From Anaerolineales bacterium (GTDB lineage: Bacteria; Chloroflexota; Anaerolineae; Anaerolineales; UBA6663), in assembly GCA_052387475.1 (NCBI GenBank), contig JBQTJD010000835.1, positions 1 through 32,410 of the forward strand: 32,410 bases of DNA. Reading direction: 5' to 3'. The notes below the pieces were generated by a model that was given only the letters and a program-made list of their open reading frames with translations, searched no databases and was not told where the DNA came from. Numbering within the stretch: position 1 is the first letter of the stretch; every line of letters starts with the position of its first letter. This document shows, one piece after another, positions 3,446 through 4,222 of the stretch. The translations under genes were made by a program, and so were the position numbers.

Positions 3446-4222
3446 ATTAAAATCTTAATCTCTGGCAAAGGCGGCTCGGGCAAAACCACCATCGCCGGAA
3501 CACTGGCCCGCATCCTGGCCCGGCAGGGCCATCCGGTGCTGGCCATTGATGGCGACAGCAATCCCAATCTCGGCATTGCGCTGGGCGTCGCGCCGGAAAC
3601 GGTCAATGCCATGCCTGCCCTGCCACGCGACATGTTGCAGGAAGTTGTGGACGAGGCGGGAGACAAATCACAAGTCCTCAGGGTCAGCGTGGCGGAGATT
3701 GCGGCGCAGTATGGCGCGACCGCGCCCGACGGCGTTCGCTTGCTGGCGATGGCCCGCCTCGACCATGCGGGCGCGGGTTGAGCGTGCCGCGCTCATGCTA
3801 CGGTTCGTAGCATTCTGGCCGCGCTGCAGAGTTCAACCACTGAGATGATTATCACCGATATGGAAGCCGGGCTGGAACACCTCAGCCGCTCCACCACCCG
3901 CGCCTCCGACGTGATGCTGGTGGTGGCCGAGCCGTATTATCGTTCGTTGGAGACGGCCGGCCGGGTGAAACAAATGGCCGCCGAGTTGGGCATCCCCAAA
4001 ATCTGTGCCATTGCCAACAAAGTCCGTACGCCCGCCGACGTGCAGGCCGTCCAAACGTATTGCGAGAAGCATAGCCTAGAAATTCTGGCCACCGTGCCGC
4101 ACGATGAAAAACTGATTGCGGCCTCGCAAATCCCGCAGTCGCCACTCGACTTTTACCCGGAGTCGGAAGCGGTGGTAGCGGTGATGGAACTGGCGGCGAA
4201 ATTGCGGGCGATGATGAATTGA
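3446..4222 (+). CDS. CooC/AcsF-type P-loop metallochaperone NTPase, putative selenoprotein (UxC in place of CxC). It has a non-canonical ATT start.
   Basis: The two track ORFs 3536-3781 and 3845-4222 are in the same frame, joined by the TGA at 3779-3781. The family motifs present are:
- Walker A: ISGKGGSGKTT.
- DGDSNPNLG.
- GAG-[TGA]-A-C-RAHATVRSIL, which aligns to the CxC nickel motif.
- DMEAGLEHLSR.

No ATG, GTG or TTG lies between the upstream stop (3422-3424) and the P-loop. ATT AAA ATC at 3446 aligns with ATG AAA ATT of the paralog at 5226. An AAGGTGAGG Shine-Dalgarno lies just upstream. Confidence 0.75.
3795..3813 (+). promoter_or_regulatory. SECIS-like hairpin downstream of UGA 3779-3781
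   Basis: ATGCTACG-GTT-CGTAGCAT forms a perfect 8-bp stem. It begins 13 nt after the UGA, and GUU sits in the apical loop. Confidence 0.6.

Follow-up and report, generated by a model that had tools for sequence, protein, structure and literature searches.

A CooC-like, putative nickel-chaperone ATPase gene with a predicted selenocysteine codon in an Anaerolineales hydrogenase-maturation locus

Contig JBQTJD010000835.1 of an Anaerolineales bacterium (assembly GCA_052387475.1), analysed over positions 1 to 32,410 and referred to below as the window, carries on its forward strand a gene for a CooC-like P-loop ATPase that contains one in-frame TGA. The coding sequence is placed at 3446..4222 (+) by homology and by the ratio of nonsynonymous to synonymous substitution rates (dN/dS), and it comprises 258 codons if the UGA is counted as selenocysteine (Sec, U). 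Translation of 3446-4225 (+) yields a single frame whose sole internal stop is TGA 3779-3781, situated between ...ARLDHAGAG and ACRAHATVRSIL..., and the true stop, read directly at 4220..4222 (+), is likewise a TGA. Mechanical open reading frame (ORF) calling cuts the gene into two pieces, 3536-3781 and 3845-4222. The original prediction for this DNA held that two same-frame halves, parted only by TGA 3779-3781, make up a complete product of ~258 amino acids, and the translation confirms it. The protein harbors a deviant Walker A motif, GKGGSGKT (3464..3487, +), aligned to GKGGVGKT of CooC1, and a Walker B-like DMEAG motif (3857..3871, +), placed by alignments to homologs and to CooC1. Between the two lie the in-frame UGA (3779..3781, +), a predicted Sec codon equivalent to Cys112 of CooC1, and a TGC (3785..3787, +) for the second residue of the U-x-C motif, equivalent to Cys114.

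For profile and database searches of the product, the stop was replaced by Cys. Pfam and NCBIfam both place the read-through product in the MinD/ParA/NifH-type P-loop group, the Pfam matches being of the CbiA/ParA/NifH type, and no model in NCBIfam release 20 captures the read-through CooC-like protein. The top match among solved structures is CooC1 of Carboxydothermus hydrogenoformans (3KJE and others; E=3e-35, residues 1-227), with MinD at ~1e-10. The alignment to CooC1 runs through the UGA. In an ungapped alignment to 3KJE, U-A-C lies on C112-Y-C114, with the TGA on Cys112 and the following Cys on Cys114, and the distance from the second Cys to DMEAG equals that from Cys114 to DMGAG. This alignment also upholds the earlier placement of the TGA at HAGAG-U-A-C with a CooC1-like spacing between the second Cys and DMEAG. 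By sequence, the protein thus has the features that define the CooC family, namely a GKGGxGK[ST] Walker A motif, the MinD/CooC fold and a C-x-C motif, here with the predicted Sec in first place. In CooC1, each monomer contributes two strictly conserved Cys residues to a four-coordinate site at the dimer interface, which binds Zn and for which Ni competes, as described in a review of carbon monoxide dehydrogenase (CODH) maturation (PMC6006190). The nearest relatives are Chloroflexota, namely metagenome-assembled genomes (MAGs) of Caldilineaceae and Promineifilaceae, and a soil-type metagenome contig.

The column occupied by the TGA, which is the first Cys of G-C-x-C, is Cys in 120/120 of the best full-length homologs from a database of 5.8 billion proteins, as is the second Cys column (120/120). 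A genome scan with one genome per species gave 78 loci besides the window (L001-L078), and at the DNA level the same column is TGA (G-U-x-C) in 37 of them and TGC/TGT in the remainder. Across 83 related genes compared at the DNA level, TGA occurs in 38 and TGC/TGT in 45. Judging by record titles, the carriers of TGA include Chloroflexota (Caldilineaceae, at 63% identity, and Promineifilaceae), Candidatus Entotheonella, Armatimonadota, Acidobacteriota and SAR324, together with many Actinomycetota (Solirubrobacterales, Gaiellales, Thermoleophilia) and MAGs labelled Cytophagia and Rhizobiaceae, so that TGA-carrying loci span about eight phylum-level groups. In addition, metagenomes were scanned with the pattern GGN-TGN-NNN-TGY-N6-CAYGCTACNGTNCGTAGC, in which the third base of the critical codon is free, and TGA was found in 120/120 among the matches listed, amounting to at least 120 contigs. 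The Sec/Cys pairs sought by homolog alignment are therefore present at large scale.

The simplest alternative is that the TGA terminates translation, either as a nonsense mutation in a pseudogene or as the real stop in a split gene encoding two polypeptides. The splitting of the region by ORF calling favours it, as does the absence of any full-length TGA-type ortholog of more than 59% identity among the best matches in the protein database. TGA-type orthologs of 59-90% identity are indeed missing as full-length entries among these best matches, which implies that they are annotated as fragments. An ordinary stop does not, however, account for TGA at the identical Cys column in 37 genome loci and at least 120 metagenome contigs, nor for a hairpin that is conserved only alongside TGA (described below). 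It also leaves a C-terminal piece without a conserved start and an N-terminal piece without half of the ATPase fold. Furthermore, purifying selection acts equally on the two halves of the gene: with four or five orthologs, dN/dS is ~0.2 on either side of the TGA, a rough estimate since synonymous sites are saturated. Reading TGA 3779 as an ordinary stop is strongly disfavoured, and the probability left to it is very small.

Downstream of the TGA, ATGCTACG-GTT-CGTAGCAT forms a GUU-looped hairpin with a perfect stem of 8 bp, beginning 13 nt past TGA 3779. This feature (3795..3813, +; stem 3795-3802 / 3806-3813, loop 3803-3805) resembles a selenocysteine insertion sequence (SECIS). The codons +5 to +10 past the Sec codon encode H-A-T-V-R-S, and in TGA genes they nearly always read CAY GCU ACN GUN CGU AGC. 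A perfect GCUAC/GUAGC core is present in 32/38 TGA genes, as against 0/45 Cys-type genes. Where Cys-type genes encode this H-A-T-V-R peptide, they do so with the codons GCC/GCG/GCA and CGG/CGC/CGA, and the core is thus kept through synonymous-codon choice in TGA genes only. The hairpin had been described beforehand as perfect, of 8 bp and GUU-looped, 13 nt after the UGA; that description is correct, and the comparison adds its specificity for TGA genes. An alignment of 29 distinct TGA-type sequences supports a helix of 7-9 pairs, three of which show two-sided, compensatory changes (C-G/U-A, U-A/C-G and G-C/U-G). In the same sequences 84% of helix cells are paired, compared with 12-41% when the 3' arm is slid.

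Six other TGA genes, forming an H-A-A-V-R subgroup, show on local folding a bulged hairpin with a CGUGC loop at the canonical position. RNAalifold run on these six loci favoured another, weak fold, and the predicted SECIS of this subgroup is less certain. In common with bacterial SECIS elements of the E. coli fdhF type, the family has a hairpin within the coding sequence, 3' of the UGA, with an apical G-U ~20 nt away and a bulged variant in some lineages. There are differences as well, as the SECIS-like hairpin of the TGA-type CooC genes, here denoted CooC(U), has a short stem (5-9 bp) and a tiny loop (GUN or NGUNC).

Two further genes of the cluster combine an in-frame TGA with a hairpin. The window gene, CooC-A, is one of three CooC-like paralogs. 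The second, CooC-B (4399..5229, +), is without a Cys motif and is a conserved partner in Actinomycetota loci. The third, CooC-C (5226..5978, +), contains TGA 5550-5552 and a hairpin at 5565-5582 that has 7 bp and an AGUU loop and starts 12 nt past the TGA. It reads PGCP-U-CG, the U being aligned with the second Cys of the CxC motif. Orthologs of CooC-C in three Actinomycetota loci (L046, L053 and L077) have two TGA codons, two codons apart, in PG-U-T-U-CG, followed by a hairpin CCCGAGC-AGUU-GCUCGGG, and are candidate double-Sec proteins by sequence. Next to CooC-C lies a gene of the FmdE family with a C-terminal zinc ribbon (5990..6586, +; Pfam FmdE 1e-43 when read through), with TGA 6143-6145 in VESDM-U-TVDGIQ and a hairpin at 6158-6176 of 8 bp with a GUU loop, starting 12 nt past that TGA. 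FmdE homologs in related loci have TGC at the TGA column and are without the hairpin, and L107 has both TGA and hairpin.

How often such a hairpin arises by chance was counted over both strands of the window, requiring a stem of at least 7 bp, GT within a 3-6 nt loop and a start 8-20 nt past a TGA. A qualifying hairpin follows 16/1124 TGA triplets (1.4%), and all three in-frame candidates (3779, 5550 and 6143) are among the 16. With the hairpin present at 1.4% of TGAs but at three of three candidates, SECIS-dependent decoding of UGA as Sec in this organism is strongly suggested.

A further alternative is that the UGA is decoded as another amino acid, such as Cys, Trp or Gly, whether by near-cognate suppression or under a variant code, and it draws on the fact that the inserted amino acid cannot be fixed from sequence. 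Against it stands the stop codon usage of the window, where TGA is the commonest genuine stop and ends 13/26 confident genes, CooC-A included. This indicates that there is no general codon reassignment and that any recoding is local. The carriers, moreover, span many phyla with the standard code, a local hairpin with GU in its apical loop sits at the canonical bacterial SECIS distance, the apical G(U) being expected about 16-37 nt from the UGA, and all three recoded positions are Cys columns of the metal-binding type, which is the usual signature of Sec. A non-Sec reading is accordingly given a very low probability, hardly above that of an ordinary stop. Sec at the TGA column of the CooC-like family is highly probable on this comparative evidence, and the gene at 3446..4222 very probably encodes a nickel-chaperone ATPase of the CooC/MinD family in selenoprotein form.

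A separate question concerns the start of the gene. From the in-frame TAG at 3422 up to the Walker A motif, encoded at 3464-3487, the frame has no ATG, GTG or TTG. The conserved start position is occupied by ATT (3446..3448, +), a putative AUU start, where ~74/81 homologous genes have ATG or GTG. This ATT lies 6 codons ahead of GKGG, at the point where the paralog at 5226 reads ATG-AAA-ATT, and it is preceded by the purine-rich, Shine-Dalgarno-like AAAGGTGAGG (3434..3443, +; read directly). The contention that ATT 3446 is the only candidate start that includes the Walker A loop, in alignment with the ATG of the paralog, therefore holds. The closest ortholog among the matches listed, on metagenome contig L087, is 90% identical in amino acids and 86% in nucleotides. 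Its start is ATG, preceded by GGAGGTGAAGG, with GGAGG where the window has AAAGG, and it is identical to the window over the TGA and the next 46 nt, hairpin included. The ATG in so close a relative indicates that the ATT of the window is a recent, lineage-specific G-to-T change. A recent start-codon mutation had been offered as one option in the original prediction, and it now has direct support from the ATG and the GGAGG Shine-Dalgarno sequence of L087.

The ATT could also be an error of sequencing or assembly, with ATG as the true start, given that it is a single base away from the conserved ATG and that the source seems to be an uncultured organism. However, this stretch differs from L087 by several more substitutions, in those few codons as well as in the Shine-Dalgarno region, which are ordinary divergence, and the sequence of the ATT region bears no sign of low quality; an error is improbable. 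AUU is a documented but weak bacterial start codon, used in E. coli infC and pcnB, and in infC it is conserved and regulatory. The window shares with these genes an ATT at the start position behind a Shine-Dalgarno-like sequence, but unlike the AUU of infC this ATT is the derived state of one lineage, whose closest relative L087 has ATG. Elsewhere in the subfamily, the start position in L040 and L033 (SAR324), L068 and L073 is ACG, GTT, CTG or CTA, rather than ATG or GTG, and non-canonical or upstream starts may be recurrent in it.

The wider neighbourhood of CooC-A is that of hydrogenase maturation. According to family searches, a hydrogenase maturation protease of the HycI/HupD type is encoded at 5..490 (+) and HypC at 494..742 (+). 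An HTH_3 (XRE-type) regulator gene at 3071..3403 (+) precedes CooC-A in the same frame, the stops TAA 3401 and TAG 3422 lying between the two, and it is kept upstream in L001, L002, L004 and L087. Annotation describes two database proteins (P0066 and P0090, 369-376 aa) as HTH-CooC fusions, and the pair may thus exist both fused and separate. A fusion in the window was considered and rejected, as TAA 3401, TAG 3422 and the Shine-Dalgarno sequence intervene. Downstream, 7641..11238 (+) encodes an ABC importer made up of a family-5 (NikA/OppA-like) substrate-binding protein and two permeases, which we infer to be a nickel importer. By tblastn, a NikA/OppA-like binding protein is found near 15/37 Sec-type and 1/41 Cys-only loci, counts that are uncorrected for phylogeny.

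In L087 the gene order is hydL, a small winged-helix gene, hycI, hypC, an ORF, the HTH gene, cooC(U), another ORF, cooC-B and cooC-C. In L003 (Entotheonella) and L033 (SAR324), cooC(U) follows directly after hypF-hypC-(SIS)-hypD-hypE. An ABC importer comes after cooC(U) in L033, and in L003 the substrate-binding protein is matched only in part. The associated hydrogenase large subunit, taken from L020, has HofG of Ralstonia eutropha as its top solved match (5AA5, E=1e-145), and the large subunit of L087 is 66% identical to that of L020. HofG (5AA5) belongs to the 'actinobacterial-type' group 1h O2-insensitive hydrogenase, and the hydrogenases in whose gene clusters the family sits are of a kind that aerobic bacteria use. 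Hydrogenase genes accompany Sec-type and Cys-type CooC members alike. Among the ORFs examined, in the window as in the loci, no CODH gene (cooS, acsA/B) came up, no dedicated cooS query having been run. The assignment to the CooC type in the original prediction thus stands, with the 3KJE match (E=3e-35) behind it, and the client context is corrected: gene neighbourhood points to maturation of group 1h [NiFe]-hydrogenases and to nickel import rather than to CODH/acetyl-CoA synthase (ACS).

The most conserved neighbour of the CooC subfamily is a winged-helix gene of ~128 aa with a weak match to MarR_2. Its homologs occur in 27/37 Sec-type and 39/41 Cys-type loci, and in 71/120 metagenome loci among the matches listed. 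The ORFs used as queries (L033 6776-7162 and L020 6784-7170) lie directly downstream of the CooC gene; the window is without this gene, which in L087 adjoins hydL. Between hypC and the CooC cluster, the window has an EamA-type transporter gene and a DUF6390 gene (739..2459, +). Both are absent at the matching place in L087 and in all other loci, and they therefore look like a lineage-specific insertion. The ORFs concerned, 739-1647 and 1326-2459, overlap by ~320 nt, so one start has probably been miscalled. A promoter and terminator scan of 2900-6700 gave nothing exceeding the shuffled background.

Several of these observations weigh against a functional selenoprotein at this locus. The window copy has a non-canonical ATT in start position, and its Shine-Dalgarno sequence is weaker than that of L087. 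In L087 a 266-aa ORF without a Pfam match separates CooC-A and CooC-B (reverse complement 6241-7060), and window 4223-4333 (+) holds a frameshifted 3' remnant of it (GDYEIGYWNDL...LQE and a stop), which implies a deletion of ~0.7 kb right after the CooC-A stop. At 11609..12364 (+) only the C-terminal part of HypE is encoded (residues 154-366, ~213 residues, AIRS_C), and its N-terminal part is absent from every frame of the stop-rich stretch 11238-11620, so that hypE is probably a gene remnant. The hypE fragment and the ~0.7-kb deletion are further lineage-specific damage, and the window copy could thus be freshly silenced. ARAGORN found no tRNA-Sec in the window or in the short flanks of L001-L078, a result uninformative on whole genomes. 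Rfam returned no SECIS or other meaningful family, either at gathering thresholds over the whole window or at E<=10 over 3400-6600, although this too is uninformative as it holds no usable bacterial SECIS model. Finally, the link to hydrogenases is drawn from gene neighbourhood alone.

The strongest contender arising from these points accepts a genuine selenoprotein family, but takes the window copy to be freshly inactivated, the change from ATG to ATT and the weakened Shine-Dalgarno sequence abolishing its expression while the locus erodes. The contrast between ATG with GGAGG in L087 and ATT with AAAGG in the window fits this, as do ATG or GTG at this position in ~74 of the 81 homologs, the frameshifted remnant of the 266-aa ORF and a hypE reduced to residues 154-366. 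Selection, however, tells against inactivation. Measured against L087, CooC-A has a dN/dS of 0.145, the next paralog one of 0.173 and the upstream regulator one of 0.124, which puts CooC-A on a par with or below neighbouring genes. The same comparison reveals neither frameshifts nor extra stops in CooC-A, and the hairpin is identical. With a low dN/dS, an intact frame and an unchanged hairpin, any inactivation would have to be very recent. Furthermore, AUU is able to serve as a weak start and a purine-rich, Shine-Dalgarno-like sequence persists. Fresh inactivation is thus possible but rather unlikely. Weak AUU initiation of a still-functional gene is the likelier account of the sequence, by a limited measure, and expression of the window copy is, to the same degree, probable.

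Taken as a selenoprotein, CooC-A would be made by the standard bacterial route, in which SelB with Sec-tRNA(Sec) would bind the hairpin at 3795-3813, whose apical GU lies 21-23 nt past the UGA, and UGA 3779 would be recoded as Sec. The ancestral ATG having lately turned into ATT, translation would most likely continue from AUU at a reduced level. By analogy with CooC1, ATP-driven dimerisation would join two U-x-C motifs into a four-coordinate 2Se/2S site for Ni(II), and ATP hydrolysis would release the Ni(II) to a client. As its client the conserved gene neighbourhood suggests a [NiFe]-hydrogenase of group 1h (Hhy/Hof-type, O2-insensitive), whose large subunit would receive nickel brought in by the adjacent ABC importer of the Ni type.

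Among known systems the closest is CooC1 (PDB 3KJE/3KJG/3KJH/3KJI), the Ni-binding ATPase of CODH maturation, with which the protein shares GKGGxGKT, the position of C-x-C and the spacing of D-M-x-A-G. Unlike in CooC1, the first Cys codon here is UGA, the conserved neighbours are structural and maturation genes of group 1h [NiFe]-hydrogenase and an ABC importer, and the paralogs form a trio of U/C-x-C, one without Cys and C-x-U/C-C. The presumed task is also that of HypB, the GTPase that canonically supplies the large subunit of [NiFe]-hydrogenases with Ni in a nucleotide-dependent manner; HypB differs in being a G3E GTPase without family-level homology to CooC(U) and without Sec. Sec is a Ni ligand in [NiFeSe] hydrogenases but is not known to have such a role in nickel-delivering proteins. 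A review of May 2026 covering 119 prokaryotic selenoprotein families has no entry of the CooC, MinD or ParA type, and FmdE is likewise not among its families; the nearest entry is the CobW-related selenoprotein NF041053, a G3E GTPase with UxxC (PMC13188914). The latter is the sole catalogued precedent found, being like CooC(U) a metallochaperone-type NTPase with Sec in place of a metal-binding Cys, but it differs in its fold (G3E GTPase as opposed to MinD/CooC ATPase), in its motif (UxxC as opposed to UxC) and in having no known hydrogenase linkage. A full-text literature search for CooC with selenoprotein or selenocysteine gave coincidental co-mentions only. What appears to be new is therefore the combination, a selenoprotein family within the CooC fold, whereas the recoding mechanism, the fold and the motif are already known.

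The family is likely an uncatalogued and widespread one, with at least 37 species-level genomes and at least 120 metagenome contigs, and since gene callers split the TGA-type CooC genes, it is mis-annotated wherever it is present. Selenium in the nickel site of a metallochaperone would be an unusual chemical setting, with a hydrogenase as an unexpected presumed client, and it raises the questions of whether a 2Se/2S Ni site is formed and whether hydrogenase activity depends on selenium. The pair of ATG and ATT starts in genes that are 90% identical offers, in addition, a natural comparison for the effect of AUU on selenoprotein expression. The context suggests an unrecognised accessory module in which the CooC-like trio and an FmdE-like protein go with atmospheric-H2-consuming group 1h hydrogenases. 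More tentatively, and as something less likely than not, it may be proposed that a selenium-dependent Ni relay matures group 1h (atmospheric-H2-type) hydrogenases in many soil and marine bacteria, through up to three clustered selenoproteins and a dedicated Ni importer. Its members would be CooC-A (U-x-C), CooC-C (C-x-U-C or U-x-U-C) and a protein of the FmdE family in which Sec would take the place of a metal-site Cys. If this is true, Se-Ni coordination would extend beyond an enzyme, the [NiFeSe] hydrogenases, to a metallochaperone as a widespread and unrecognised strategy, and trace-gas H2 oxidation would be tied to the availability of selenium.

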